A DNA stretch of 52,656 nucleotides from a virus (taxonomy: Duplodnaviria; Caudoviricetes), in the IMG/VR virus record IMGVR_UViG_3300011335_000305, positions 1 through 52,656 of that record. One strand, given 5' to 3'. Both the position numbers and the translations under genes were made by a program. The notes beneath the pieces are model-generated. The model had not been told where the DNA came from and made no database searches. It saw nothing but the letters and a program-made list of their open reading frames with translations. Below are positions 16,783 to 43,100 of the stretch, piece by piece. Positions within the stretch are counted from its first letter, which is position 1, and each line of letters starts with the position of its first letter.

Positions 16783-16819
16783 TGTTGTAAAAATATTTCA
16801 TCTTTTTTGCAAATAAAGC

Positions 16820-16848
16820 TTGACAAGCAAATAGCACATACCGAAAAT
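16820..16848 (+). promoter_or_regulatory. Sigma70-like early promoter
   Basis: TTGACA-N17-GAAAAT with an AT-rich upstream tract, ahead of the first plus-strand gene. Confidence 0.6.
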
Positions 16849-16900
16849 GGAATTGTTGTAGCAGATGAATTAATTATTAACCACCTAATAGGAGAAGCAA

Positions 16901-17128
16901 ATGATCAACGAACAAGAAGCAATACAAGAGATTCGCAAACACGCTAACGCCAATTACAACAAGGGTTGGGATGTTGTAGTGGAAGCGTATGACGATGGTG
17001 ATCTACTAGAGGAATTATCTGAAAACGGAATGAATGTTAAGAAGACTATTAAGTCCTTACAAGGTATGGTTCGTTTGCGTAATCAGCAGATGAAAGAACA
17101 TCAAGCTGAAGCGAGATCAAGCTATTAA
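16901..17128 (+). CDS. Early hypothetical protein
   Basis: 75 aa, AGGAG SD; HANANYNKGWDVVVE motif. Confidence 0.75.
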   Translation: MINEQEAIQEIRKHANANYNKGWDVVVEAYDDGDLLEELSENGMNVKKTIKSLQGMVRLRNQQMKEHQAEARSSY

Positions 17129-17181
17129 GGTAATCTGATGATGGGGTTAATCCCCGAAACATTCGAGAGAATGTCATTACC
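17129..17181 (+). ncRNA. Type I hammerhead ribozyme HH1
   Basis: Stem I GGTAAT/ATTACC, core CTGATGA plus extra T, stem II GGGG/CCCC, GAAA, stem III CATTC-GAGA-GAATG, GTC cleavage after 17175. Confidence 0.9.
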
Positions 17182-17201
17182 AACTCTGCTAGGAGAATTA
17201 A

Positions 17202-17477
17202 ATGTTACCAACTGATACAGGAAATTTAGTCACCATCAAGAAGCATGGCAAGGGCAATACGAAATATTATGCCGTCTCTATCGCTTCACCAGTGATCAAT
17301 GAAGACAAGCAATACTTCTTTCGTGATTACACCAGTGCGTTTGCTTATCGCAAGGATGGAGTTACAAGCTTAACTTCGCAAGTAAAACACAACAGTCCTG
17401 AATTGCGCTTATCTGCGCCAATGTCAGAAGTCTCAAACAAGTCCGAATACAACGCTGATAATTTTAGGGGGATTTAA
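17202..17477 (+). CDS. Early hypothetical protein
   Basis: 91 aa with GCTAGGAG leader. Confidence 0.7.
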   Translation: MLPTDTGNLVTIKKHGKGNTKYYAVSIASPVINEDKQYFFRDYTSAFAYRKDGVTSLTSQVKHNSPELRLSAPMSEVSNKSEYNADNFRGI

Positions 17478-18020
17478 TATGAAATTCTACGAAATAGGAA
17501 TGTTCTTCATCTGTGCCGTATTTATTGCCTTAATGATCGCACTATGTCTCGCAGTAGAGGGGGGGAGATTTTATGTATAAATTAAGTGCAATATATTCTT
17601 GCGACTATGGTAACCAAAATGAGGGTGCATATCTTGAAATACTTGGCACATATAAAACAAAATTAGAGGCTGAAATAATTGCCGAAAATTTTGAGTTTGA
17701 CGAAATTGCGCCTAATTTTTTATCAACACAAATTGAGGAGATTTAATATATGATTGCCGTTATCGTCAATACCAACAGTCAGCGAATAGCTGAACATCAG
17801 TGCCAGTCTTGGGCGCAGTGCAGTGAATGGATTGATTCTTACCTTACCTACAACGATCTCAAAAGGGCGTGTTCTGATCATATTGCACATGGTCAACACA
17901 CTGTATGGGTGCGCTAGTGAAATGGATCAATGCGTTCTACGATCTGTTACTGGTTGCTAGTATCGTGATCGTTCTTTATATAATTTTGGGTTCAATTTAC
18001 CTTTACTTAGGAGGAAGTCT

Positions 18021-18206
18021 ATGAATTACGCAGAAGAACAAATGTTGGCAGTAATGCCTTACCCAGTGGATTCTATTCACTACAAAGATGTAATCATTCA
18101 AATGCGATCCGAATATGGTTACACCAAGTGGATGAAAATTACGCCTGAAGAATTTCGCAAGATCGAATTAATCTTAACTGGGGAATATCATGCTCAATAC
18201 GCCTAA
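18021..18206 (+). CDS. Early hypothetical protein
   Basis: 61 aa, AGGAGG SD. Confidence 0.7.
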   Translation: MNYAEEQMLAVMPYPVDSIHYKDVIIQMRSEYGYTKWMKITPEEFRKIELILTGEYHAQYA

Positions 18207-18381
18207 TCAGATAGAACACTTCCGTTTACTTACTTTACGCCAAATGCTCAAGCTTGAATTACTAGGCATGAAGCGTAGTGGGAGATCAGCTTACGCCATC
18301 ATCAAAAGTGAGTTAGGACTAAAGGGCAATAAGAAGTCCGTCTTTGATCAGCTATCGGATATGTTGGGCAAGTCAAACTGA
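18190..18381 (+). CDS. Early hypothetical protein
   Basis: 63 aa; LKLELLGMKRSGRSAYAIIK motif; stop codon lies inside the HH2 core. Confidence 0.75.
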   Translation: MLNTPNQIEHFRLLTLRQMLKLELLGMKRSGRSAYAIIKSELGLKGNKKSVFDQLSDMLGKSN

Positions 18382-18423
18382 AGAGTCTTCAATAGACGAA
18401 ACTGGTGCGAACCAGTCTTTGAC
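18372..18423 (+). ncRNA. Type I hammerhead ribozyme HH2
   Basis: Stem I GTCAAA/TTTGAC, CTGAAGA, stem II GTCT/AGAC, GAAA, stem III CTGGT-GCGA-ACCAG, GTC cleavage after 18417. Confidence 0.93.
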
Positions 18424-18442
18424 AAACTGCTAGGAGTTAAAA

Positions 18443-18787
18443 ATGGAAACACAATTAGATTTGAATAGCTTTACTGGGACTGAGAGTTATTGGAAGACTT
18501 GTTTGTTTGCACCGAAGCTAGTGCATACTGATGGCGTTCAATACTTTGCTGACCATGCAAATGCCTACTGGTTCTTAGATATCGTTGCTACCGAGTATTT
18601 TAACGGCTTGGCTGACGATTTCTTGAGTATCAAACTGGTGGTTCACAGTGGTCGAGCAAATATCACTGTTGAGGATGGTGATTGCAACATCATCAAAAGC
18701 CGAGAGATAGAGTTTACGGATTGCCCTGAGGGGATCTACAACTTCTTTTTGACCAACAATGTATTGATGTTGACTTCTGAATACTAA
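18443..18787 (+). CDS. DUF6876-like protein
   Basis: FTGTESYW...TDGVQY...AYWFLD...IEFTD...LMLTSEY signature. Confidence 0.75.
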   Translation: METQLDLNSFTGTESYWKTCLFAPKLVHTDGVQYFADHANAYWFLDIVATEYFNGLADDFLSIKLVVHSGRANITVEDGDCNIIKSREIEFTDCPEGIYNFFLTNNVLMLTSEY

Positions 18788-18796
18788 CAAAGGGAA

Positions 18797-18813
18797 AGGG
18801 GGAAACCCCTTTT
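18797..18813 (+). terminator. GNRA hairpin, possible weak terminator
   Basis: AAGGGG-GAAA-CCCCTT with a short T tract between genes. Confidence 0.4.
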
Positions 18814-18820
18814 AAAAATA

Positions 18821-19036
18821 ATGGACTTAGACGGCAAAAAAGGTTTGGCAAGGGACATTTCCCAGTATGGCTACCACGAGCATAAAGGTTATGTTTGGGA
18901 TGAATACGATGCCCAAGGCATTTTCTTAACAAGGGTTTGCGAGACTTGTGTAGAAGAGAAATTAGCAGTTTATCGTCCTGAGATTCTTTCAGGATATTCC
19001 CAAGCTGATGTAGACGAATCGATTGAGGAGAATTAA
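18821..19036 (+). CDS. Early hypothetical protein
   Basis: 71 aa; YDAQGIFLTRVCETC...YRPEIL motif. Confidence 0.65.
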   Translation: MDLDGKKGLARDISQYGYHEHKGYVWDEYDAQGIFLTRVCETCVEEKLAVYRPEILSGYSQADVDESIEEN

Positions 19037-19038
19037 TT

Positions 19039-19224
19039 ATGGGTAAATTTACACTGGAAATTAACACGGATAACGATGCATTTAGTGGCGAAGATCTGCA
19101 CATTGAATTGCTAAAAAAATTAACAGATGTTGGTTATCGAGTTAGCGTATTGCGTGAGTTAAATGGGATCATTGTTGATTCCAATGGCAATACTGTTGGC
19201 GTTCATCAATTTTTTGGAGAATAA
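19039..19224 (+). CDS. Early hypothetical protein
   Basis: 61 aa; INTDNDAF...DSNGNTVG motif; GAGGAG SD. Confidence 0.7.
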   Translation: MGKFTLEINTDNDAFSGEDLHIELLKKLTDVGYRVSVLRELNGIIVDSNGNTVGVHQFFGE

Positions 19225-19225
19225 C

Positions 19226-19486
19226 ATGGATATTAAATTTTTTGCAGATCCTGCACATGGATGGGGTGAAGTGCCGATTAGCCTGATTAAAGAATTGGGC
19301 ATAGCTGACCAAATAAGCCACTACTCTTATATGAAAGGTGATAACGCATACCTTGAGGAAGACTGTGATCTGTCAGTCCTTATGAACGCCTTAGAAGCGC
19401 AAGGCATTACTGCCAATTTTGTTGAAGTATGGACAAACAACGATAGTCCAGTGCGTAGGTATCAGAGTTTTAAATTATCAAACTGA
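19226..19486 (+). CDS. Early hypothetical protein
   Basis: Start MDIKFFADPAHGW after GGAG; YLEEDCD motif; stop codon inside the HH3 core. Confidence 0.75.
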   Translation: MDIKFFADPAHGWGEVPISLIKELGIADQISHYSYMKGDNAYLEEDCDLSVLMNALEAQGITANFVEVWTNNDSPVRRYQSFKLSN

Positions 19487-19527
19487 TGAGCCTGTAAGGG
19501 CGAAACTGGCGTGAGCCAGTCTTTGAT
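19477..19527 (+). ncRNA. Type I hammerhead ribozyme HH3
   Basis: Stem I ATCAAA/TTTGAT, CTGATGA, stem II GCCT-GTAA-GGGC, GAAA, stem III CTGGC-GTGA-GCCAG, GTC cleavage after 19521. Confidence 0.93.
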
Positions 19528-19549
19528 TAACTTGCTAGGAGAAATTATT

Positions 19550-20080
19550 ATGCCAAATTGGTGCTATAACAATTTAACGATTGATGGAACGACAAAGGGT
19601 GGAAAGATTCTTGCTGAAGCTTTTAGACCGAAATATCCGATGGATGATGGAACATTGGATGCAAATCCTTTCCAAGACTTGATGCCGATTCCTGAAGATT
19701 TACGCATTGTATCAGGGTGGTTTGGTGATGGGACTGACAAACAGAATGAAATGCAAAAGCTATACGAAGCCAATAAGGAAAAGTATGGTTTTGAGAATTG
19801 GTATCACTGGTGCATAGCAAATTGGGGAACGAAGTGGGATGCCACTGTTCAGGATTTTGATGACAACAATATCAATGATATTCGTGTTTACTTTGAGACG
19901 GCTTGGAGTCCACCATTGGACTTTTTGAGTTGGTTCTGCGAACAACATCCTGATACAGTTTTTACCCTTAACTACGATGAAGAGGGTTGTTCGTTTGAGG
20001 GTGAAACTACCCATAATCCTGAAGATGGTTTTGTTGACAATTGTTGGACACCTGAAATGGCCTTGGAGGATGCAGAATGA
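19550..20080 (+). CDS. DUF1281 / YubB (Api92-like) ferredoxin-fold protein
   Basis: MPNWCYN start, WYHWCIANWGTKWD and FETAWSPP motifs. Confidence 0.8.
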   Translation: MPNWCYNNLTIDGTTKGGKILAEAFRPKYPMDDGTLDANPFQDLMPIPEDLRIVSGWFGDGTDKQNEMQKLYEANKEKYGFENWYHWCIANWGTKWDATVQDFDDNNINDIRVYFETAWSPPLDFLSWFCEQHPDTVFTLNYDEEGCSFEGETTHNPEDGFVDNCWTPEMALEDAE

Positions 20081-20364
20081 ATATTTGCGAAGATGGCTAT
20101 TCAGGTAATAACGATCCGTTCTTTCAAGAAATATCAGATGATTGCGATGAAATTCAAATGATTCCCGATACTCTTGATGATGGTTCAGTGGTGGTTAATT
20201 TCGATGTTTACGACAAAGAAAATAACGAAGTAATCAAGACTGGTGGATATGTTCTCATTCGCAAGGAAGAGGATCTGAAAGATTTTTACATTTGTGTATT
20301 TAACAAAGATGGTGATCAAATGTCTCAAACCCGATTGCCGTTTGACTGGTTAAGTCTTGACTAG
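20077..20364 (+). CDS. Acidic early hypothetical protein
   Basis: 95 aa, coupled ATGA overlap. Confidence 0.65.
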   Translation: MNICEDGYSGNNDPFFQEISDDCDEIQMIPDTLDDGSVVVNFDVYDKENNEVIKTGGYVLIRKEEDLKDFYICVFNKDGDQMSQTRLPFDWLSLD

Positions 20365-20435
20365 TGCAGTAATCCTGATGCCCAGTTGGGCATTGGGATT
20401 GCCATTGGGGTGATCATAACTGCTAGGAGATTAGT

Positions 20436-20747
20436 ATGGATTTTCAAAGAGATTTAAAAGTTGGCGAGTATGTTTTGATGGGTTGTGGGACAGATAACAA
20501 CGGCAAAAGGGATCAAATTTCTGCTTTATGCTATTGGCGTAACAGTCCTGACAAAGCCAAAAACATATGCATGAGATTTGGGAAAGTAATAAAGGCGATG
20601 TGTATTACTTGTTAAGGGTTGAACGAGTTTGTATGTTCGGGCAGTTACCCAATGGTTATTGATCTTCCCAAGCCTGTTGAAAGGGTTAATTTGACACTGG
20701 AAAAAGCCGAAGGCGATGACTGGAATGTTTTCCAAGGGGATGAGTAA
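20436..20747 (+). pseudogene. Interrupted early gene
   Basis: Strong leader and ATG at 20436; one in-frame TAA at 20613-20615; the same frame resumes to a stop at 20747 that overlaps the next ATG. Confidence 0.5.
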
Positions 20748-25569: not shown

Positions 25570-26391
25570 TTACTTCTTTTTTTGCAGAGATTTGATTTGA
25601 CGAATCAATTCAGCATTTCTTGACTGATACATGTCTCTGCTATCTCTTAAAGTTTTGTTTTCCATTTCTAAGATCTTGATCGTCTCTCGCAACTCTTTTA
25701 CTGTGTCCTGTATGTCCTCTATTTCGATGTCTGTGGCATCTTCCCATCGATTAGAGGCGATAATGTCTTTCAGTTTGGCATTCTCATCATCCAAGTTCTC
25801 TATCGTTGTAGACAGTTCTTTTAACTGGTCTTCAGTTTTGTCATAAACTGGCTTTTCTTCAGCAACATTTGTCTTTAATGATTGCGTGTTTACTTTTATT
25901 TCTTTTTTGTTTTTATCAATATATATTTTTTCAGTAGTAAATTCCTTTAACTTTTTAGCTTCAATCATTGCCAACTTGACACGACCAACAGTCATTGCAG
26001 ATACTTTTATTTTTTTGGCAATCATGGTGTTGGTGTAATTTTTATACACAGGATGATTGAACATAATTTCAATGGCATGACGATTATCAGCATGGCTTGG
26101 TCTTAAGCCGTTGTCTCCGTTTGCCGTCAATGAAAAGTCTAATGCATCATCTTTAGTGCCTTGACGAAGATCAACATCTACAGAGACAGTGCCATTTTTC
26201 TTATTGGCAAAGTATCTGTGAAAGCCTGATGAAAGCCAGTAATCAGAGCCGTCATGGAAGACAACCATTAAAGGAAATTGATGCCCTTCCTTCATGAGTT
26301 CAGCGTATTCGTCTACGGCTTGTGTATTTAATTCTTTACGAGTTTGTGTGCCACCGTCTGTACGAATGGCTAATAAATTCAAAGTTTTCAT
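25570..26391 (-). CDS. ParB/Srx-domain protein with HTH and coiled coil
   Basis: TQTR...VDEYAE...YWLSSGFHRY ParB-like motif; NTMIAKKIKVSAMTVGRV HTH. Confidence 0.75.
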   Translation of the reverse strand: MKTLNLLAIRTDGGTQTRKELNTQAVDEYAELMKEGHQFPLMVVFHDGSDYWLSSGFHRYFANKKNGTVSVDVDLRQGTKDDALDFSLTANGDNGLRPSHADNRHAIEIMFNHPVYKNYTNTMIAKKIKVSAMTVGRVKLAMIEAKKLKEFTTEKIYIDKNKKEIKVNTQSLKTNVAEEKPVYDKTEDQLKELSTTIENLDDENAKLKDIIASNRWEDATDIEIEDIQDTVKELRETIKILEMENKTLRDSRDMYQSRNAELIRQIKSLQKKK

Positions 26392-26417
26392 TTTCTCTCC
26401 TAGCAGTTGGAAATTCC

Positions 26418-26446: not shown

Positions 26447-26863
26447 GACTATTTCAACAAATTTGTCTTTGGGTACATCATAAAAATATTCTCCGTCAGC
26501 TATCCTCCTGTTGGGTATCTCCATCAACGGACTTGCCAGTATCTCTTTAACATTGATATACCAAGCTTTTGACAGACTTTTGTTGATGACAAAGTAAACC
26601 GTTGGCATATCGTTGTCGAATAACTTCTTCTTCCGTTGGGGAATGTGTATAGTCCTAAATGGGCAATCTTCCCAGTCCCGCATTTCAACCTCGGCATAAC
26701 CGATTGGTACAGAAAACTCATTCTCAATTAATAAATCTACCTTGTATTTGTCATATGGCAGAGCCGTATAGTCCCATCTGTTCTTGAGATAAGTTGTCAA
26801 CGCTTCCCTTGCCGGTGGATCGCATTGATCATGGATGTATTGGTCGAATGGTTTAATTTTCAT
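26438..26863 (-). CDS. Putative PD-(D/E)xK nuclease-fold protein
   Basis: YKVDLL...YAEVE motif; 141 aa. Confidence 0.5.
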   Translation of the reverse strand: MKIKPFDQYIHDQCDPPAREALTTYLKNRWDYTALPYDKYKVDLLIENEFSVPIGYAEVEMRDWEDCPFRTIHIPQRKKKLFDNDMPTVYFVINKSLSKAWYINVKEILASPLMEIPNRRIADGEYFYDVPKDKFVEIVLL

Positions 26864-27225
26864 AAGTAAAAAGACAATAGTTTCCCCAAGGGTGATAAGC
26901 CCTCATCCATTACGAAGTAACTATCGCAACTAATGCTCCCTAAGGTAATGTTCAATCGTCATAGTAGTTGTCTCACCTCTGTCCACTATAACTTGTGTGA
27001 TACCCATTTAAGTCCACGAGGCACGCTATCGGGTGAAGGATCAGCCTATGTTCTATTCCACGCAACCCATGTAGGTTCTTGATATCGTTTGGAGTACGTC
27101 AGTACTAGGAATGACACACAAAATGGCATAAATTTATACACATGAAACTAAAGTATATAAAAATATTCAATTTGTTTTCAGAGAATTGTTTCAGTCTCCG
27201 GTGTCATTCCTAGCAGTTGAGCCTA

Positions 27226-27255
27226 CAGATTAAACTATTTTTAAATATTTTGCAA
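27226..27255 (-). promoter_or_regulatory. Sigma70-like promoter
   Basis: TTGCAA-N17-TAATCT; spacer shares 14 bp with the sRNA promoter spacer. Confidence 0.5.
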
Positions 27256-27260
27256 CAGAT

Positions 27261-27299
27261 AAAAAGAAAGAACCCCAAATTTTTTAGATATGGGGTTCT
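27261..27299 (-). terminator. Rho-independent terminator of the sRNA
   Basis: AGAACCCCA/TGGGGTTCT stem followed by TTCTTTTT on the minus strand. Confidence 0.75.
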
Positions 27300-27387
27300 G
27301 GGTGTGGATAAGCAGGCATCCATGCCATCATTTGATTAACCCTGCTAGGAGTAGACACCAGATTGATGGCAGTACATGGGTTTGTAC
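27261..27387 (-). ncRNA. Putative trans-acting antisense sRNA
   Basis: Own promoter and terminator; stem TGCCATCA/TGATGGCA encloses a loop with CTCCTAGCAGGGTTAATCAAA, complementary to early-gene leaders. Confidence 0.7.
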
Positions 27388-27393
27388 CTACTA

Positions 27394-27423
27394 AGTATAG
27401 TGTATTTTTAAATATTGTGTCAA
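27394..27423 (-). promoter_or_regulatory. Sigma70-like promoter of the sRNA
   Basis: TTGACA-N18-TATACT. Confidence 0.75.
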
Positions 27424-27710
27424 TATATTGTACCTATATGGTTATTTTCAAACAACCAGCCAATTGTTTTTCGATGGCATTCATCCCATAACTCGATTCT
27501 TTCTTGCTTGGAAAGCTTGTTACCTTGATCTAATTCCATATGGCAAGAGTAACAAAGTGCGCCAATTCTGTAGTCATGGGCTTTGATTCCACGGCCTTTG
27601 CCGTCCCGTAGCTGGTTAGAATGCGCAGCCACCACCGTTCCATCGTTTCTGCCACAGTGTTGACAGGGTGATTGACGGACAATTTCTAGTAATTTCTTAT
27701 TTCGATACAT
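27420..27710 (-). CDS. DUF1364/DUF968-like His-Cys nuclease-like protein
   Basis: PCQHCG...TVVAAHSN...GKGRGIKAHD...LCYSCH. Confidence 0.7.
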   Translation of the reverse strand: MYRNKKLLEIVRQSPCQHCGRNDGTVVAAHSNQLRDGKGRGIKAHDYRIGALCYSCHMELDQGNKLSKQERIELWDECHRKTIGWLFENNHIGTIY

Positions 27711-30418: not shown

Positions 30419-30583
30419 TTACTTTGTCATACTTGCGTTTTTTGATGGCAGCAATACCAGCTTCAGGGCTTTTGTTTCGGGCAAGTAACATTTCATCAGC
30501 AAACCTATAACAATCTTCTGCGTTTGCCCCTGTTATCGCTTTAAACATAGCAAAACAATCTCTTAGATCTTGTTCGTTCATTA

Positions 30584-33695: not shown

Positions 33696-33725
33696 TTTTG
33701 ATTTCCTAGCAGTTAATCAGACTAT

Positions 33726-33783: not shown

Positions 33784-34125
33784 ATGAAAATAATTAATTT
33801 ACCTTGGCCTCCGAAAGAATTATCCCCCAACGCCAGTATTCATTGGTCTAAGAAGGCAAAGTACAAAAAATTGTATCGGGAAGCTTGCTGGGTTTTAACC
33901 CTAGAAACTAAGCTAACAGTAGATACATTAGGGAAAGTCCCTATAGAGATAACCTTTTACCCACCCGATAAAAGACTGCGGGATGCGGATAACATGGTTG
34001 CCAGTATTAAATCTGGCTTGGACGGGGTAGCTGATGCTTTAAAAGTTAATGATAGGCAATTTTTGCCTACCTTTATTTTTACAGACGAAGTTAAGGGGAT
34101 GGTTTCTGTTCGGCTTGTAGTCTAA
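33784..34125 (+). CDS. rusA: RusA-like Holliday junction resolvase
   Basis: LPWPP...LSPN, FYPPDKRLRDADN...KSGLDG...VND motifs. Confidence 0.8.
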   Translation: MKIINLPWPPKELSPNASIHWSKKAKYKKLYREACWVLTLETKLTVDTLGKVPIEITFYPPDKRLRDADNMVASIKSGLDGVADALKVNDRQFLPTFIFTDEVKGMVSVRLVV

Positions 34126-37100
34126 ATCGAATCGTTTGCTCTAAGATTCTTTCTTTGGTTAACTTTAAGTTATTAATCTCAGCCCGTTTTTGTTCTGCAT
34201 TCCTCTGCGACTCAGGTAATTTTTCAATTCTACGGATATTGGAATTAATTTCAGACAAGTCCTTACCAGCTTGTTGAGTAAAGCCATACGCCTTGATCTC
34301 ATTAATATGATCTTGATACCATGACTTTGCTTCTGCCGTTTTCTGATTCTTCATCAAATCTCGGTATGTTGCCATAGCCACTTCGGTACGTTGTTTTAAG
34401 TCATAGAATAAGTCTTCTCTACCTCTTGGTACGTCAGGCGCTACAAAGCTTCCATACAGAGGATTAGAACGCTCTTCTGGCATTGGTCTATTATTCCCTA
34501 GGGCATTAGACATCCACATTGCTGTAGCCGCCACAGTGCCCCCTAAACCACGCATGAGGTGATCTGCTTCCATTGGGTTTAATAAACGCTTTTCTTTACC
34601 CCCTGTAACAGAGCTTAACCATTTGCCAAGTTCAGAAGTTGCAGCATTGTACTGCTCAAAAGCGGCTAAGTTTTCCATACCTCTTGGTGTAATCCTACCG
34701 CCAGTAAAGAAGTTACGGTTTAATTTAATTTCAGCCAAGGGCTTTAATCCTGTTGGCACTGGTCCCGATCCCAATGGACCAGCAAACGCATCAATAAGTC
34801 CTTCATGTAGGGCTTTACGCAGTCTTTCGTTATCTACTGCATCCTTTGTTCCTTCTTTTGTTATCTGATTAAATAACATTTCTGGAATAGACTTAAATAG
34901 ATAGCTGGCAGATGTATGCATTGGTATTAACAAAGTATGATCGTAACCAACTTCTTTCATTAACTTCTTAGGAATAACAAAGTTACGCATCTTTGTTTGA
35001 TCATCCATCTTGTTATATTCGTCATCATCACCGATGGCGTAACAATATAAAAGAACGGTTGCCGATAAGCCAAGCCCTGCAATAGTTAAACGAGTAATAG
35101 CTTTTTGACGATCCAGTCCTTTTAAGTTGCCACTGACACTAGTTACTTTTGCCCCAGTTAACTTTTCAATTCCGGCAGCTGGCACTTCCATTAACGCTTG
35201 TGTTAGTACGTCAATTTGCTGGGCAAACGCATTCATAAACGAAATAGTACGGTTTAAGAATTGCGCTGTAGCACTGTTGCCACGCTTTTCAAAGTCAATC
35301 ACATTGGTTGCAGCCAGTAGCGCTGCTCGCATGTCACCGCCAACAACTTTGCCATTAACAATCTTACCGCCAGATTCTATAATTTTCCGCATAAACACGG
35401 CTCTACGCTGTGAATAGTCAGAGGCATCACCAATCCGATCAAGCAATTTAGTAATCTTGGCGTAAGTAGACTGGTTAAGCAAACCCATTTCCTGTTTAAA
35501 TTCTTGCTCAGCAGTTCTTGCCGTAGAAGTAAAGCCACCAATACCATGTGATTTAAGTATTTGTACAACTGGATCATTGCTATTTAAAGCTTTAATGGCG
35601 GAAGAAAATACTTTAGTCCACAGGGCTAATGGGTTTTTTACACCTGTTACCAGCATAGCCGTTGGCGCATCCATAAATACTTGTTTGGCTTGGAACGCTG
35701 GGGAAATAGTTACTGCTCTGCGTAAGCCGTTGGCAAAGAATGATAGAACCGTTCCCATAGGCACTTGAATGCTTTCAATACCAATTGCAGCTTGAGCAAT
35801 CAGTGGATCAGCAATTTGAATATTTACCTTGCGACCATTAACTAAAATCTTAATAATGCCTTTTGAATGATCTTCTTGTGGGAATACTTTTAATTTGCCG
35901 TTCTCATTACGAACACCATACTCTTGGGCAATTCGGTTCATGGCGTAATTTTTAATAACATTACGGACTGTAACCATAACATTGTGAATCATGTTGTCCA
36001 CAATATCATCAATATCTAAATCAACTTCACCTTCTTTAAATTTTTGTTCTCTAGAAACATTTCGCACTGCTTTTGTGCCATAAGTATATTTTGGCGTAGC
36101 AGGACGGAACCAGCTTGCAGAATGAACATCCTCTTGGTCATCCATAATACGATTCCAAGGAACGTAATCCTCAATTTCTCTTAATGATTGAGCACGTCTT
36201 TTATCAATCATCTTTGCAAACTCCATGAAATCTACCATGTTTTTGTTAACAGCGCCCCAGTTATCCATCATCTGACGGAGTTCTGGGTGGAGTTTTTCTA
36301 AGTCACTGTATTTGTCAATCTCTTCATCGGTTAAGTTAACCTTGTCTAAAGCTATCTTAATATTTCGTAACCCTAATTCTGCATCGGCAATCTTGTTTAA
36401 CAGTGTTAACTGACGCTCTACACCAGTAGCCGGATCCATTTGTTCTGTTTTAAGATCTTCTAATTCACCCTCACGTTTCAGGTATTCATTCACAATAGAA
36501 CGGGAACGCTTAGCTTCAAAGTAAGCTTGAATTGCTTTGTAAGACAGCTCTCGACCAATACGATTTTCTAACTTATGTTTTAAGTCAATCACATTAGCCA
36601 TTGAATACTTGCTTTCTGATGCAGCAAACATTTGCTCATTTGGGTCGAATGCAAGCATTCCATCTAAAATTACTTGAGTTCCTATACGGGTAGCTCGTAA
36701 TGCTTGATTCATTGCCACAGAAGCTACAGCACGATTTTGGCTATCCTCTAGCATACGCCCATACCTTGCGGCATCAGCAGCTGTTAAGCCGGCAGTAAAG
36801 TCAGTTGTCTTAATCCTTGCGGCAAGAACTACACGATCTACATTGCCAACTAAATTAACTGCGGCCTGTTTAGGGTTGACAAGCATATTCCTACCAATAC
36901 GATTGGCTTCCTTCATGCCACCCATCAGCTTGTCATAGTTTGAGCCGGATACAGACAGAGGAGCATCTGGTCTATCTTTTAATATATCTTCTGTGGTTTT
37001 AATATTGTTAATAAAATCTAGTTTAACTTTGCCTTGGGTAAGGTAATCCACCAACATAATATTATGGGATCTTGGTGTTTCACCTTTAATCAACTGATTG

Positions 37101-40100
37101 AAAGCTTTGTAAATTGGGTACTGGTTATTAAACCCAAATACGGATTTTAATCCTTCAAATAACTGTTTGACAAATTGTACAAACCGATGCCACGGAGTAC
37201 CCATTTTGGTAGCAAATAACCGTTCAGCATTAACAGCCCAGTATTCAGATGGGTTAATGTACTGATACATATCCATGTTTGGGCACAAAGATGCTGCAAT
37301 ATCAAAATTTTCCTTTGTTGGTCTTTCAATAAAATCTAAGACAGCTTTGAAATATTTTGCATTAACAGCGTCAGTGTTCTTTTTAATTGCAGCGTCTAAC
37401 GCTTTTTTCCAAGAATCTATAATGGCATCTCTGGTCTGAGGTGTCATCATATTTTCTAAGGTATGCATTAATTCATGGCGAATCGTAACTGGACTGTTTG
37501 TTCCAAGACCTTTGTACAAAGTAACCAGTTTTGAAAATGTATTGTAATTTCCAATAGAAGAGCCTGTTTCATTCTTACGAACAGATAACTTAATGCCAGT
37601 TAATAAAGCTGGAGTTCTGTCGTAAAGGTATCGAATAACATTTAAAGTTTCTTCGCTGATATTGCTTTTAGAAAACTCATCAAAAGCTTTCTTCATAAAA
37701 TGTTCAGGCGTATCATTCTTTGGCGTAGTTAACTTGATGTCTTGTTTTAACTCATCAGACAATTCAAGTAACCTAGATAGTTCACGCTGATAGCCAATGG
37801 TTACTTCGCCCTTGGCAACTTTCTTCATAATGTGAGCAGAGCGTTGACGGAGTTTTTTATACTCCGCTATCTGTTCATCATGGATACGTTTAATGGCAGC
37901 CGTTACTTTTTCATTAGGTTTAAATGTTATTGCATTAGTTTGAATAGGTTTTTGGGTATAGCTAGTTAATGTATAACCTTCACTATGGGCTTGACGGTCA
38001 TACTCTATAATTTTTTCAGGAGACAATACACCATCTTCCAATTCAGCGCCATTAAAAAAACTAACTTCAACAGGTATATATTTCCACCCTAATTCTTTTG
38101 CCACCATAATGCGATGGTTTCCTTCGTTTACATAAGGAGTACCATCTTGGTAAATGTTTAAAAATGGAGCATAGTGTTCTGGCTCTTGCTCTGGTCTAAA
38201 TGCCGGCAATTTATTATTCTTACTCATGTAATTAGTTAGCCATTTAATGGAGTCTGAACGAACATTTTGTTGTTCAGCTCGCATACCTTGCAATTTTGCT
38301 AATACATTTACAGGAAGAAGAACTTCTCTTTCACGAACACCTTCACGTCTAAATGATGCAGTAACAGAACCAAATCTTTCTGGTACTCCATATTTATCTA
38401 CACCATCTTCTTTTGACTGTTCTCTCTTACCTCTTAACCATCCACCGCCCGGATTATCCGTTCTTAATGTCAGTAGCTTGGCTGTTGGGAACGCCATGTT
38501 GTTTGTAGGAATAATGGGGCCAAATAATTTCTTCGCCTCTTCCTTTTTATTCAAAGCAATTAACGAATCACCTTTTTCATTTATTAAATAGTCAATAACT
38601 TTCTTTGCTGTTTCCTGTTCATAAGTAAAGGCATACATCGTGCTACCTGACTTATAAAAATCACCCAGTAACTTTGTTAATCTGCTATCTAAGAAATAAA
38701 TGCCACCAGTCTTCTTTGAGCTTGGTACGTTAAATTGAATTTTTCTATTATTACCAATAATTTGTAAAACTTTATCAGCTGTGCCAATAGTTCCGTTAGC
38801 TTCTGTTAAAAACTTTATAGCATCATCTGCTGATTTTATTTTTGTTGGTGCATCACTTTGTGCTTTGGTAAAGTCATATGTCCTTGGCATTAAAACACCT
38901 TGCCCAGTTGTGCCATCCGATTTTGTATAGGTCATAATCTGACCTTGGTTGTCTACAACTGGAGAAGCAAAGCCAGATAAAATGTTACCAGTTACCATCC
39001 AGCGTTTTTCACGCCTAACTGTTGCACCCTTGTCAAACAAATCCATTAAATCAATATTTTCTGCTACGCCAGTTTCAGGGTTTAACCAATTAATAATACC
39101 CTCTTGCGCTAATTGATATGTAGTACCAATTTGAGAAAAGTTTATTGAAGTAGATTTAGCTTCACCATTTGCCAAAGCAATTGTCATTTTCCAATCAGAA
39201 CCAGCAGCTGGATTCTTTGTTTTACCTTTTGTTTCTACGTTGGTGATCACGCCATAAACAAAAACACCTTGGTTATTCTTAACAGAAATAGCCGTACCAA
39301 TTGGGTAAGCTCTTAAAATAGTCTTAATGTGGTTTTCATTTAGACGTAATTGGTCTAATGTTTTATTAGTTTTTACTTCGTCAGCTTCACTTTCTTTTAA
39401 TTCAGCTTTCTTTTGCTCAATAAAAGCTTTCATTGCGCCACTGAGTACACCATTCTGCTCATTGCCAATTTGTCTACCGCTTACATTACCCAAATTTTCA
39501 TCAATTATTTGTTTTACTTCTGCCTTGGAATATGGCTTAACAGTACGCTTAACATCAATTTGTTCCATAAATGCTGGTCTAGCAAATAAAGAATCACCTT
39601 TTGATTCAGTAATGGGTGTAGAAGATAATGTTTCAGCATCAAGGTCAAAAGCCTTAGCTTCAAGCTTATTGGTTCCCATACTGTTTTCACGCTCAAGCAA
39701 ATCGTTGTAGCGTTCAACTAAGTCTTTGTAGATTTCCTCTTGATCTTTAATTGGCAATATGGGAATGTAACCCGTTAATTTACGAATGTCTTCTTCATCA
39801 GCTTCAGACGGATCATCCGATATTTCTAATAATTTTTTACCACCCAATGCTTCATAAATTTCTGGGTTGTCATTTAAAAACTCTTGAGCAACTTGACCAC
39901 CGTACTCATTCATAAAGTCTACAGCACCTTCAGCAGTTACAGCAGACTTACGAGAAGCTGTTGTATTCGCATTAAGTGATGCCATTTTCTTTAACAGAAC
40001 GGCAGCTGGGCGCATTTCTGCGGGAATATCAGCCATCATCTGTGAATAAAACGGAGGTTGAATTTGTCCAGTTCGATGTACCCGCCCAAGCATTTGCATA

Positions 40101-43100
40101 TGCGTATCAATGTTCTTTTCAGCCTGAACAATAATCATATGGCGCTTTTTTGTATTTTTTAATCCTTTTTTGGCGTGTAAAGATAAACCAGTAGAGCCGG
40201 CTTGATTTAATATGATTACTCTAATATCACCGTTATTAAATGCTTTAACTGAGTTAACACGGTCTTTAATACTGGGTGAACGAGGCATTAATAATGGCGT
40301 TCCACTCTCATAATTTATAGTTAATGTACGACCAGTAATCTCACCTGTTTTATATCCAAGTTTGCGTAATTCGCTATGCATATAATCAATTGGTGACATT
40401 GGAGCAGAACCAAACCCAGCATTATTAATAAATGTTTTAATGGCGTTGTATTGCTCTGTTAATGTTGGCCCAAGATCTTGATCAGTCAAACGGTAGATTT
40501 GAAAGTCTTCTTTTTTAACTGCTCCGGGCGGTTTAATAGTTACTGTACGTTGTTTTTCTAAATATCTTAAATACAAATCTTTAAAGGATAAGTTAATTGG
40601 ATCACCAGTTTTAAGTCCCATTTCATCTGCATATTGCTGTAAGAATGAGCCCATTGTATTAGATACAGTTAATACAACTTGCTCGCCACGCTTTAAACTT
40701 TCTACAGCATGTTTAATAGAATCCTGTGCCTTCAATGACAATAACATTTGGTCAATCAAGTTATGCATTGTTGAGCCAAAGTTAGCAGATTGGACTTGGG
40801 TTTTTTCTGACCCTCCCCTTATTATTGAGCCACGCTTATCTAATTCTTTTTGTATTTCACCTACTGCTTTTTCCTTCTCCCTAGAGAATGACAAAATATC
40901 ACGCATAGACGTAGCCATGTTTTCGGCAGTAGCTTTGTCAACTTTAGTTTCAACAGTGTTATAACTTACACCGGCAAATGTACGCTCTCTACGAATATAC
41001 TGTCCTACTTGTGTAAGCATGTTTGCAACAATCTGTTGCATCGGAATGCCGCCATTTTTAATAGCTTCACCCAGTTCTGATATGTTATCCACAGCAAGGC
41101 TCATATCTGTGCTGGAATACAAATCCATTACATCTGGGCGTTTAGCGTAAGTGGCTGATGAAAAGAAAGAGCCAAAAGAATTGTTAACCATTTCACGAAT
41201 AAATGAAGAACGGCCTGTGCCTTCTTCATCGGATTTTTTACTTGTGCCGCCAGCGTTATGGCTTTCGTCTAAGATTAAGTATCCGTCATTACCAAAATGA
41301 TTTAAAAAAGCTTGGCGTTCTGTTGGCGCTTTTTTAACCATTTGTGTCTGAGAATAATTAGTAAAAATAACCTTGTAACGACCAAGACTGTCATCTGCTC
41401 TTAATTTCTTAAACAGTGCCGTTAATTTATACCCTGATTTTTTTTCATCTTTTAGAGGTGCTTTTAATATAAAATCTTTTTCAACGGGCTCACCATTAAC
41501 TTGTCTTATTAATGTGTAAGGCACTGGCTCATTGTTGTTAGTTACTATTATTTTAGGATTATTGGACTCTAAAGCTAACTCATCAGTCATGCCAATATCA
41601 TCTAAATCCCTAATCATGTCAGAGTACAGATTGGGTTTTTCTGTCATAAATATTGGTGTTTTGCCATTTAACAAAGCATACTTAATCATGCCAGCTACAA
41701 CACGACCTTTACCAACACCTGTTTGATCGCCAATAATAAATCCTTTACCAGCTTCAGCGTTGCTAATTGCTAATGCAAGAGCATCTATTTGCTCAGCCGA
41801 GAATTTCTCTCTTAATGTTTCAGGATCCATTTGTAACGCTTCGGCTACATATTCATCAATATCGCCAAATTGTGCTTCCAGTTTAGTAAGAGACTGGTCA
41901 ATGGATTGTGCCATTGCTCTTGGAGCTAATGTTCCAACAGCTGCGGCTTGAGAATGCGGAGTATAACTTACCTGATTCTCGGTTTCAATTTCTTCACCCC
42001 TACGGTCTTTTAATCTAGACTCGATTGGTATACCTGTGTCAGTGCTAGGTTCACCCAATCCTCTAGGCTCGTTTCCTGTATCGCTTGTTCCGCCTCTGGG
42101 CTGTTCTCCTTTAGCTGTGCTGGAAACGGGTTTTCCAACATCTGCAGGTTCAGGTTTGTTAACAGGTTTAGGTTGTCCTTCACTAACACCTGTCCCAGTT
42201 GATTCGGGTTGTCCACGCTTGGTAGGTCCAGCTTCAGACACGCCTTGTCTGCCGCCTCCTGCGGGTTCTTTTCTTCCAGCACTAGGTTCATTACCCTCTC
42301 CGCTAGGGCGTTCACCCAATCGCTCTGACTCACCTCCCCTGCCGGTAGGTTCACTGATGTCAGTTCCACTGGTGCCAATATTTTCTCCGGATACCATGCT
42401 AGATTCATTTAGCTTCTCCTTTAACTGTTCATAGTTTTCAATAATTTTTGGAAGATCCCCAGCCGGTAATGATCTTTTAGGCAGAGTAAATCTAAGGTTT
42501 TTTGATTCCCATTTTCCGTTAATAACAATAACATCAACAGGATAACTAGCGCCCTGTTTAGAATACATATCGCCAGCTATCGTAAAGTGATCTACTACGT
42601 TGTAATCTTTATATAAATTAACGTAAAAATTACGTTTAGATGCGCTACGATATCCTTCACGCCTTCCTTCTTCTGTATTTGATTGAACGCCACCAACAAT
42701 TAAAACAGCACGACCATTACTTCTCATGCTTTGTAAAGATTTCATAACAATAGCGTGATCAATTTCTCTAGTTTTAAACCCGTCAATATTAAAATCTTCC
42801 CCAATAGATCCAAATGGAGGATTTTCAATAACAACATCTACAGTACTTGGTGTTACTTTTACACCGTTTTCATTAGTAACTTTGGCACCAGAAAGTACTT
42901 TTTTAAGCATTTCAAAACGGCTAGAGTTAAGCTCGTTTGCTATTACCTTCTTTGGGTTAGCATCAATCAACAGCATTCCGTTACCAGCTGTTGGTTCGTA
43001 TACGGTAGTGCTATCTGTTATTCCAGCCAGTTTACTAGCTACAAATGCCAATGGTGCTGGGGTTGAATACGCCTGTTCTCTAACACTGGTTGAAGAACGC

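Follow-up and report, generated by a model that had tools for sequence, protein, structure and literature searches.

Can a small RNA (sRNA) encoded by a phage recognize a self-cleaving ribozyme of the same genome, and would it then act on the ribozyme or on the message that the ribozyme releases? The question is raised by a 52.7-kb uncultured virus record of the Caudoviricetes (IMGVR_UViG_3300011335_000305, ~83% complete), whose whole stretch of 52,656 nucleotides (nt) was analyzed and is designated here as the window. A type-I hammerhead ribozyme (HH3) is located at 19477..19527 on the plus strand, directly 5′ of a ribosome-binding site (RBS), and a candidate sRNA of ~128 nt is encoded at 27261..27388 on the minus strand. 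The loop of the sRNA is complementary to the leader that HH3 would release, and the match exceeds chance. On balance we lean, with modest confidence, toward an anti-RBS antisense sRNA that would pair with the HH3 leader mainly after cleavage and repress translation, with invasion of ribozyme stem I as a side effect. Related genomes and loci are designated by G and L numbers; the relatives G001 (91% identical) and G002 (80%) were reached through the protein encoded downstream of HH3.

Match between the sRNA loop and the HH3 leader

HH3 consists of the 5′ strand of stem I, AUCAAA (19477-19482), the CUGAUGA box (19483-19489), stem II (GCC-UGUAAG-GGC), GAAA, stem III (CUGGC-GUGA-GCCAG), GUC and the 3′ strand of stem I, UUUGAU (19522-19527), with the predicted cleavage after C19521. 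The 3′ product would begin with a 28-nt leader (19522..19549, plus strand) that starts with the stem-I 3′ strand UUUGAU, continues with the spacer UAACUU and GCUAGGAG (19534-19541), which includes the Shine-Dalgarno (SD) sequence GGAG at 19538-19541, and ends before the AUG at 19550. The loop of the sRNA (27331..27363, minus strand) comprises a variable 5′ flank (27363-27352), a seed CUCCUAGCAG (27351-27342) and a 3′ extension GGUUAAUCAAA (27341-27331), and is closed by the stem GCCAUCA/UGAUGGC (27370-27364 / 27330-27324).

The loop ends in ...CUCCUAGCAGGGUUAAUCAAA. A sequence-only reading of this region had claimed that the last six letters, AUCAAA, repeat exactly those of the 5′ strand in stem I of HH3, that UCAAA also matches a second hammerhead, HH2, and that the target of the sRNA includes the 3′ strand of HH3 stem I. 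All three claims hold: the identity is seen between the loop (27363-27331) and 19477-19482, HH2 has GUCAAA at 18372-18377, and six of the six stem-I nt of HH3 are paired in a continuous duplex of 20 base pairs (bp). The HH2 match adds almost nothing in energy (-26.1 kcal/mol versus -22.8 to -26.5 kcal/mol for sites that match the seed only). On the HH3 side, the complementary part is UUUGAUUAACUUGCUAGGAG (19522-19541, plus strand; -38.6 kcal/mol, the best non-self site), and the duplex is built of 9 bp, a C-G pair, two G-U pairs, a 1-nt bulge in the sRNA and 8 bp, with 20 target nt paired. The target corresponds to nt +1 to +20 of the 3′ cleavage product, and the complementarity ends exactly at the cleavage site. 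This fits an alternative offered in the same reading, namely that the whole target becomes accessible only once the RNA has been cleaved.

In the HH3 hammerhead fold, GCUAGGAG and the spacer are unpaired and leave a 14-nt single-stranded toehold, while pairing with the sRNA and formation of stem I are mutually exclusive. Cofolding gave free-energy differences (ddG) of -15.6 kcal/mol for the precursor and -18.1 kcal/mol for the released 3′ product, i.e. the product is favored by 2.5 kcal/mol. In the minimum free energy (MFE) structure of the precursor with the sRNA, stem I is displaced and stems II and III are intact.

The HH3 site was the best non-self local alignment of the loop complement in the window (score 30). 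When the comparison was anchored at the seven non-self GCUAGGA(A/G) sites, the probability of at least 10 contiguous matching letters upstream was P ~2e-4. The local alignment and the anchored tests replaced a ranking of RNAduplex tiles, which allowed large interior loops and separated HH3 poorly (-32.9 kcal/mol versus -32.1 kcal/mol for an unrelated tile).

Hammerhead ribozymes between early genes

HH1 (17129..17181, plus strand) is a type-I hammerhead with stem I GGUAAU/AUUACC, CUGAUGA with an extra U that sits before stem II (GGGG/CCCC), GAAA, stem III CAUUC/GAAUG and GUC, and its predicted cleavage is after C17175. HH2 (18372..18423, plus strand), also of type I, has stem I GUCAAA/UUUGAC, CUGAAGA, GAAA and GUC, with the predicted cleavage after C18417. 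HH1, HH2 and HH3 all have the conserved core letters, the A15.1-U16.1 pair and C17 of a type-I hammerhead, with an open stem I and loop-capped stems II and III around the core. The hammerhead pattern matched the window four times compared with 0.32 expected, a count reached in none of 100 shuffles; the fourth match is on the minus strand at 30455-30499. Each of HH1-HH3 lies between two early genes and directly 5′ of the RBS motif, and the SD starts 11-16 nt past the cut. The block of small early genes that holds them is headed by a promoter-like site, TTGACA-17-GAAAAT (16820..16848, plus strand; 10 of 12 consensus positions). Between the hammerheads, no plus-strand promoter stronger than this site was found, and the number of sites is below the shuffle expectation. 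The cultured-phage collection contained no DNA match to 16800-20500, and the large terminase of the window is at most 58% identical to that of any deposited phage record.

The upstream open reading frame (ORF) of HH1 stops at 17126-17128, immediately 5′ of stem I, while those of HH2 (18379-18381) and HH3 (19484-19486) stop within the CUGAAGA and CUGAUGA boxes, respectively. The UGA stops of the latter two, on the plus strand, are part of the CUGANGA core; a translating ribosome would therefore occupy the ribozyme core up to termination, and translation and ribozyme folding may thus be coupled.

Both HH1 and HH2 have the hammerhead fold as their MFE structure. An isolated 84-nt segment with HH3 has a different MFE structure (-22.2 kcal/mol), in which the spacer and SD are paired to the stem II region and partly hidden, compared with -17.4 kcal/mol for the hammerhead-constrained structure. 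No match across the window reached the Rfam gathering thresholds. HH2 scored 29.3 bits (E 0.0033) with Hammerhead_1, whose gathering score is 34, and HH3 gave sub-threshold, mis-typed matches only (28.0 versus 48.5 for the type III model and 26.5 versus 56.3 for RAGATH-1-hammerhead).

Thirty-one distinct related hammerheads share an invariant core and cut site, all with the cut after UC, and their stems covary. The filter used for this set itself demanded pairing, so that the evidence lies in the diversity of pair types alone: position 2 of stem II is UA in 6, GC in 12, AU in 6 and CG in 7, stem III has 3-4 pair types at each of positions 2-5, and stem I has 2-5 types at positions 1-4 and 6. 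In the close relative G001, HH1 and HH2 differ by one base each (for HH1 in the stem III region), and the ribozyme, spacer and RBS of HH3 are letter-identical. Many hammerheads of the same family (L041, L042, L043, L044, L055, L060, L067, L087 and others) have a ~50-nt insertion in stem III that carries two copies of a GAG(A/U)CCGCAAA-like motif.

RBS leaders and their genes

The RBS motif occurs at six gene starts in the window, as CUGCUAGGAG at four of them, as UUGCUAGGAG at HH3 and as CUGCUAGGAA at a small gene (33695). Exact copies of UGCUAGGAG number 4 to 7 in four of the five relatives searched and 2 in G004, and backwards-read controls gave 0. The spacer and RBS after HH1, AACUCUGCUAGGAG (17182..17201, plus strand; AUG at 17202), form 14 bp, one of them G-U, with the sRNA seed region (-31.3 kcal/mol), and none of the six stem-I nt of HH1 is paired by the sRNA. 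The corresponding part of HH2 is AAACUGCUAGGAG (18424..18442, plus strand), followed by the AUG at 18443 of a gene encoding a DUF6876 protein. The gene after HH3 (19550..20080, plus strand) encodes a protein of 176 amino acids (aa) with a DUF1281_C / Api92-like ferredoxin-like domain (PF18406, E 2.7e-8); its orthologs in G002, G005, G009 and L003 have no hammerhead in front. A ParB-N-like gene (25570-26391) has the RBS CUGCUAGGAG at 26397..26406 on the minus strand, which matches the sRNA seed only (-22.8 kcal/mol).

The 3′ extension of the sRNA also matches a second site in the window, the leader of the small gene, GAUUAACUGCUAGGA (33704..33718, minus strand; AUG 33695-33693), with 3 matches in the window versus 0 expected. 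The same leader is also kept before a small gene in the hammerhead-less G007, where it is the sole partner of the sRNA extension. No canonical sigma-70 promoter was called at the leader 33704..33718. A promoter that would place GAUUAAC at the extreme 5′ end of the 33695 transcript was rejected, since 22 nt separate its TTGACA from its TATAGT and no promoter is called there by the scan. The element GG(G)UACAA-N4-5-TTGACA lies ahead of the sRNA promoter (~27441-27418, minus strand), of the 33695 gene (~33770-33749, minus strand) and of a G004 gene (L038 near 8150), and may be a common operator or UP-like element.

The module of a hammerhead, (U/A)AACUGCUAGGAG and AUG is found in dozens of viral and metagenome contigs. 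Pattern scans for the UUUGAUUAACUGCUAGGAG module (38 viral and 56 metagenome loci) gave 93 matches with 46 distinct sequences. By the strict pattern, 42 of the 93 matches are hammerheads, and several more have a long stem III that extends beyond the 75-nt span examined; the remainder includes three genes for the sRNA. Unrelated contexts were seen for nine of the 46 distinct sequences, which come from nine loci. The commonest hammerhead leader in this wider family is UUUGAUUAAC. A leader common to many loci, UUUGAUUAACUGCUAG, of which 19522-19537 in the window is a variant, contains UGA, UAA and UAG, one per frame, before the SD. These three-frame stops suggest a role as a stop 'insulator' or boundary.

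Structure and variation of the candidate sRNA

The sRNA is preceded by the promoter TTGACA-18-TATACT (27394..27423, minus strand; 11 of 12 consensus positions), which is letter-identical in G001. Its predicted elements are a 5′ hairpin, the 7-bp stem that closes the 33-nt loop, another (third) hairpin, and a terminator made of a hairpin and a U-run; the terminator hairpin has 9 predicted pairs and a 13-nt loop and is followed by UUUCUUUUU. The energy of the fold is -39.2 kcal/mol (z-score -2.98), and 0 of 200 shuffles were as stable. The unit 27261-27388 contains no minus-strand ORF of at least 50 aa, permissive Rfam scans of the region 26700-27500 gave chance-level matches only, and an exact scan for the loop and stem of the window found no further copy.

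Pattern scans identified the sRNA in 14 distinct variants, 13 of which were aligned. All variants came from patterns requiring CTCCTAGC, and L033 and L136, which were GC-rich or unrelated chance matches, were excluded from the counts. An own promoter and terminator and the antisense orientation are constant in all 13 aligned variants, and the sequence 5′ of the seed is hypervariable. Compensatory changes were observed in the terminator and in the 5′ hairpin (GUACA/UGUAC, GUCAG/CUGAC and CCAGU/ACUGG; read by eye), and the loop-closing stem covaries (GCCAUCA/UGAUGGC versus CCGUCA/UGACGG). MAFFT with RNAalifold on the 13 sRNAs recovered the terminator and a 3-bp artefact only.

The variants are of two types. 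Type A has the stem-enclosed loop (window, L069/G007, L117, L114, L082 and L135), and in type B (L025-L032, L053/G009 and L072/G010) ...AGACUUGUGCAA-N-GCAAG comes after the seed and the extension is absent. The window, L069, L117, L114 and L082 have the extension GGGUUAAUCAAA in common; its carriers other than the window were found with a pattern requiring the extension, and the one unbiased scan added L135. The sRNA of L135 (4040-4182) is near-identical to that of L069 (11306-11440) and keeps GUUAAUC, with UUCAUA in place of the AAA to which the first three letters of stem I would pair. The difference between these two sRNA genes is confined to ~10 letters in the 3′ part of the loop, which suggests a cassette-like replacement of the target-recognition segment. 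The sRNA of G001 has the same promoter and terminator, a compensated 5′ hairpin, and a short loop CACUCCUAGCAGAGCUC that lacks UUAAUCAAA. The window sRNA is mosaic in appearance: its promoter and terminator resemble those of G001, and its middle part resembles that of G007/L117.

Predicted action of the sRNA on cleaved leaders

In the reading that we favor, HH3 would cut a polycistronic early RNA after C19521 and leave a 28-nt leader that starts with the stem-I 3′ strand and carries the family RBS motif. The exposed seed would pair with this motif in the HH1, HH2 and HH3 leaders and in those of the 20436, ParB-like and 33695 genes. The loop would be bipartite: the seed with the 5′ flank would recognize the 5′ end of the adjacent structured RNA, and the seed, plus the 3′ extension in type A, would recognize the RBS leaders of early genes. 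Pairing would mask the SD and repress translation, and decay may also be triggered. At HH3, the extension would lengthen the duplex to 20 bp from nt +1, covering the whole 5′ end of the cleaved message. Because this duplex starts at nt +1 of the cleavage product, binding is expected mainly on the cleaved leader that is free of stem I. Displacement of stem I on the uncleaved RNA would be possible, as a side effect and not as a selected function.

Several points weigh against this proposal. Our data consist of sequences, folds, conservation and covariation, from which we infer transcription, transcript ends, cleavage, pairing in vivo and repression. An automated terminator scan (loops of at most 8 nt) missed the sRNA terminator, whose 13-nt loop is too long for it. 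The invariance of the seed is partly due to ascertainment, because the search patterns required CTCCTAGC. The conserved RBS motif reads AACUG and most of the sRNAs would pair best with CUCUG, so that pairing with the sRNA does not account for the full motif. The predicted duplex at seed-only sites is just 10 bp, with ~-18 kcal/mol on the bare leader. Genome-wide, the alignment score of 30 obtained for HH3 was reached by 3 of 300 mononucleotide shuffles. Finally, element 2, the complementary site in the structured RNA described below, is the best partner of its cognate sRNA in 7 of 13 cases, is not the best in the other 6, and is a poor one in G001.

The adjacent structured RNA as a possible target

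A promoter-like element, TTGCAA-17-TAAYCT (27227..27255, minus strand), is located directly past the sRNA terminator. It is present in all 13 loci and is a putative promoter on the basis of its sequence, though not called by the consensus scan. Element 2 (CUGCUAGGAAUGACACC; 27200..27216, minus strand) lies ~45 nt past the sRNA terminator on the same strand in all 13 loci; it is RBS-like and complementary to the seed and 5′ flank of the loop (-32.8 kcal/mol, the second-best non-self site). Element 3 (GUGUCAUUCCUAG; 27105..27117, minus strand), ~85 nt past element 2, resembles the 5′ flank and seed of the loop, and element 2 forms the 5′ arm of a long-range helix with it. The element 2/3 domain (27222-27100) has an energy of -41.3 kcal/mol and a z-score of -7.51, with compensatory versions in G007 and L117.

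This domain heads a structured RNA of 250-350 nt that follows the sRNA in every relative (27222-26863, minus strand, in the window). The RNA has at least three body types (L034 17632-17751, L037 2754-2870 and L133 3371-3489). In G005, G006 and G009 it is the Rfam family RF02932, Betaproteobacteria-1 (91-100 bits versus a threshold of 49.4), and the RNA of the window has no Rfam match. The presence of Betaproteobacteria-1 beside the sRNA hints at a betaproteobacterial host. A small ORF or type I toxin beginning at element 2 was considered for G010, which has an SD, an AUG and a 25-codon hydrophobic frame, and was rejected: G005 has ACG, and a 2-nt difference breaks the frame in G004. No conserved ORF follows element 2, as frames and start codons differ among G010, G005 and G004.

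It could be argued that element 2 is the sole real target of the sRNA, which would compete with element 3 for a helix there and, similar to P1 c4, act within its own region. Element 2 being an RBS-like version of the common motif, the RBS-leader matches, including that of HH3, would then arise as by-products. The mean energies of the sRNA/element-2 duplexes are -29.4 kcal/mol for cognate and -20.6 kcal/mol for non-cognate pairs, and -12.0 versus -6.0 kcal/mol for the flanks alone. Element 2 is the best non-self site in four of the seven genomes scored (G007, G010, G006 and G003), the second in the window and the third in G005 and G009, and flank covariation extends the pairing up to 18/18 bp in G010 and 17/18 in G003 and G006. 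The stability of the element 2/3 domain with its compensatory versions, and the adjacent, co-oriented placement of the sRNA and the structured RNA in 13/13 loci, point in the same direction. However, nothing in element 2 matches the type-A extension, which is nevertheless retained and has its counterparts in GAUUAAC leaders of the window and G007. The sRNAs of the window, L117, G004 and G006 keep CUCC although their own element 2 reads GGAA, which fits a constraint from GGAG-type RBS targets, and the HH3 leader is a better predicted partner in the window than element 2 (-38.6 versus -32.8 kcal/mol). We consider it unlikely that element 2 is the only target.

Overlap of the sRNA with ribozyme stem I

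The sequence-only reading had further proposed that the sRNA could displace stem I and block cleavage. The physical premise of this proposal is supported by the 14-nt toehold and the cofold; for control of cleavage, the comparisons give no support. In such a scheme, the sRNA would dock on the spacer and SD of nascent HH3, branch-migrate into UUUGAU and block self-cleavage; the cistrons would stay joined, and the 3′ end and stability of the upstream message would be altered. All six nt of the stem-I 3′ strand are complementary to the sRNA, and the toehold is unpaired in the hammerhead fold. The cofold of the precursor displaces stem I only, with the ddG of -15.6 kcal/mol given above, and HH3 may cleave slowly, its hammerhead fold being 4.8 kcal/mol less stable than the alternative. 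The scheme is also consistent with the retention of the extension in at least four diverged type-A sRNAs with a covarying closing stem, with the frequency of UUUGAUUAAC among hammerhead leaders, and with the function in Escherichia coli of an engineered hammerhead that senses small trans-acting RNAs (described in the cited part of PMC3664830).

The relatives argue otherwise. G001 has HH1-HH3, with HH3 and its leader identical, but its sRNA loop lacks the extension. Conversely, G007 (complete, 61 kb, with terminal repeats) has a type-A sRNA with the full extension, and no hammerhead was found by pattern at its RBS-motif sites or elsewhere. Matches of a loose hammerhead pattern in G007 and G008 lacked stems II and III as judged by eye and were rejected. 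Both G009 and G010 combine UUUGAUUAAC hammerheads with type-B sRNAs that have no extension, and in G006, L030, G009, G010 and G005, where hammerheads precede (U/A)AACUGCUAGGAG, the sRNAs are of type B and their pairing is limited to the 10-nt core. The AAA is lost in L135, and the extension-bearing type-A variants other than that of the window came from a pattern that demanded the extension.

Cognate hammerhead leaders and sRNAs were scored in 14 rows, which after removal of one duplicate record correspond to 13 distinct pairs from 5 records. In only one of the 13, that of HH3 in the window, does the duplex run without interruption across stem I and gain energy (-26.9 kcal/mol versus ~-18 kcal/mol for the seed alone). 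One G009 leader had 6/6 stem-I nt paired but no gain (-18.8 kcal/mol). Among the same pairs, seed-target covariation was not seen, and the overlap is not maintained where ribozyme and sRNA co-occur. By these comparisons, the overlap between the sRNA and stem I of the ribozyme is not conserved as a link. For this reason, and because the window sRNA is mosaic in appearance, the HH3 match is best regarded as the coming together of two modules that each existed beforehand.

The order of transcription also speaks against a block of cleavage: stem I is transcribed ahead of the toehold, and the ribozyme would thus be complete before the sRNA docks. Moreover, the SD would be masked either way, so a block of cleavage would add no obvious control of the downstream gene. 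That the sRNA serves to stop HH3 cleavage is in our view quite unlikely, and stem-I invasion, though physically possible, is probably secondary. Equilibrium would favor the duplex, and judging from what is generally known of hammerhead and sRNA rates, the outcome of an invasion would depend on kinetics.

Both events might be combined in a two-input RNA gate, in which cleavage makes the sRNA landing site from nt +1, and a high level of the sRNA prevents the cut by invasion of stem I in the nascent HH3. We regard this gate as equally unlikely. If true, it would provide the first natural example of a trans-acting RNA that is adapted to a self-cleaving ribozyme and can control it, and the Betaproteobacteria-1-type RNA would join the circuit as a competing target or sponge. 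Very improbable, finally, is the absence of any RNA-RNA regulation, with the 13-20 nt strings (stem I, UAAC and CUGCUAGGAG) being cassette boundaries spread by recombination and the loop an inverted copy of them: the interchange of hammerheads, hairpins and plain RBS junctions before orthologous genes, the mosaic window sRNA, the restriction of the L069/L135 difference to the 3′ part of the loop and the three-frame stops of the leader would suit such boundaries, but recombination alone leaves unexplained the covarying stems around a conserved loop, the covariation of the seed flank with element 2, and the fact that all 13 aligned variants keep the antisense orientation and a promoter and terminator of their own.

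Hairpins in place of hammerheads and other features of the window

Upstream of the AUG at 20436, a long imperfect hairpin (20361-20408, plus strand; -32.6 kcal/mol, z-score -3.28) is followed by AACUGCUAGGAG (20418-20429). Homologous hairpins with compensatory changes are present in G001, G003 (three), G005 and G007 (two), at the loci L035, L036, L037 and L132. The members of this family are imperfect hairpins of 15-21 bp with the consensus ...GUAAUCCUGAUGCCC-loop-GGGCAUUGGGAUUGC..., located 10-20 nt 5′ of AACUGCUAGGAG, which is the place of the hammerhead elsewhere. No Rfam match was found for the family of 20361-20408. From its sequence and position, the hairpin looks like a candidate RNase III-type processing site that is interchangeable with the hammerhead. 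Hammerheads, hairpins and plain RBS junctions swap in front of orthologous genes.

Elsewhere in the window, a single ORF of 4217 aa occupies 34091-46744 on the minus strand. Sampled words of the stretch were found at 52-93% in several small DNA runs coded as a single organism, and also in river and lake metagenomes, which may hint at the host or culture.

Comparison with known systems

In RiboJ-type insulators and at the RNase III sites of T7 early mRNAs, a processing element just 5′ of the RBS gives each cistron a defined short leader. Their relation to the hammerhead-RBS module is one of analogy only. The placement of a ribozyme or long hairpin exactly between a stop codon and an extended RBS looks like a natural insulator that would give each early cistron the same short leader, and a conserved sRNA complementary to this leader would add a regulatory layer to a widespread hammerhead-RBS arrangement.

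Prophage polycistronic RNAs with several hammerheads flanking genes are known (Perreault et al., 2011, PMC3088659). According to the cited part of that report, native polycistronic transcripts of ~2 kb were cleaved in vitro, the triple arrangement of A. tumefaciens was cleaved also in vivo, and processing into gene-length mRNAs was proposed. As in that work, the window has several closely spaced hammerheads between small phage genes. It differs in that the ribozyme abuts a conserved extended RBS with the stop in or at the core and the SD 11-16 nt past the cut, that the module swaps with a long hairpin, and that a phage sRNA is complementary to the leaders; these features are not described in that part of the report. 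The purpose of bacterial and phage hammerheads still needs definition, as stated in the cited portion of a 2019 review (PMC6765202). Searches of the literature and Rfam found neither the sRNA family nor the tight hammerhead-RBS module, and neither a hammerhead/long-hairpin interchange nor a natural sRNA matched to a ribozyme-made 5′ end.

The c4 antisense RNA is processed from its operon transcript and covers the icd RBS. In the P1/P7 immI operon (c4-icd-ant), the site of c4 is downstream on the same strand, and the following genes are blocked (Citron and Schuster, 1990, as cited in the relevant part of PMC8198154). The sRNA of the window resembles c4 as a phage antisense RNA with a same-strand downstream site in the same region; this site, element 2, is RBS-like but is followed by no conserved ORF. 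Unlike c4, it is transcribed, by prediction, from a promoter of its own up to a terminator of its own, the flank of its seed is hypervariable and covaries with the neighboring site, and further matches of RBS type are spread over the genome. No Rfam C4 match was obtained even at E up to 10, in 26700-27500 or in the window, and there is no relation in sequence or structure. The covarying site of the sRNA is also a lead to the function of the orphan RNA Betaproteobacteria-1 via an antisense partner. A literature search under the name 'Betaproteobacteria-1' returned nothing on the RNA motif, and to our knowledge the link between the sRNA and element 2 is the first functional lead for this RNA.

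Our literature searches found no natural sRNA-controlled hammerhead, and the only precedents for sRNA-controlled self-cleaving ribozymes that we know of are engineered. A hammerhead responsive to a trans-acting RNA (taRNA) and placed at the RBS represses translation initiation in E. coli, as given in the cited part of the work (Klauser and Hartig, 2013, PMC3664830). This switch would be the synthetic counterpart of sRNA-controlled HH3 cleavage; it is man-made, and the stem-I overlap of the phage is not conserved. If the phage sRNA acts only on cleaved leaders, or if it prevents the cut, antisense control would be tied to ribozyme processing in a natural system, in a way that has so far been achieved only by engineering.

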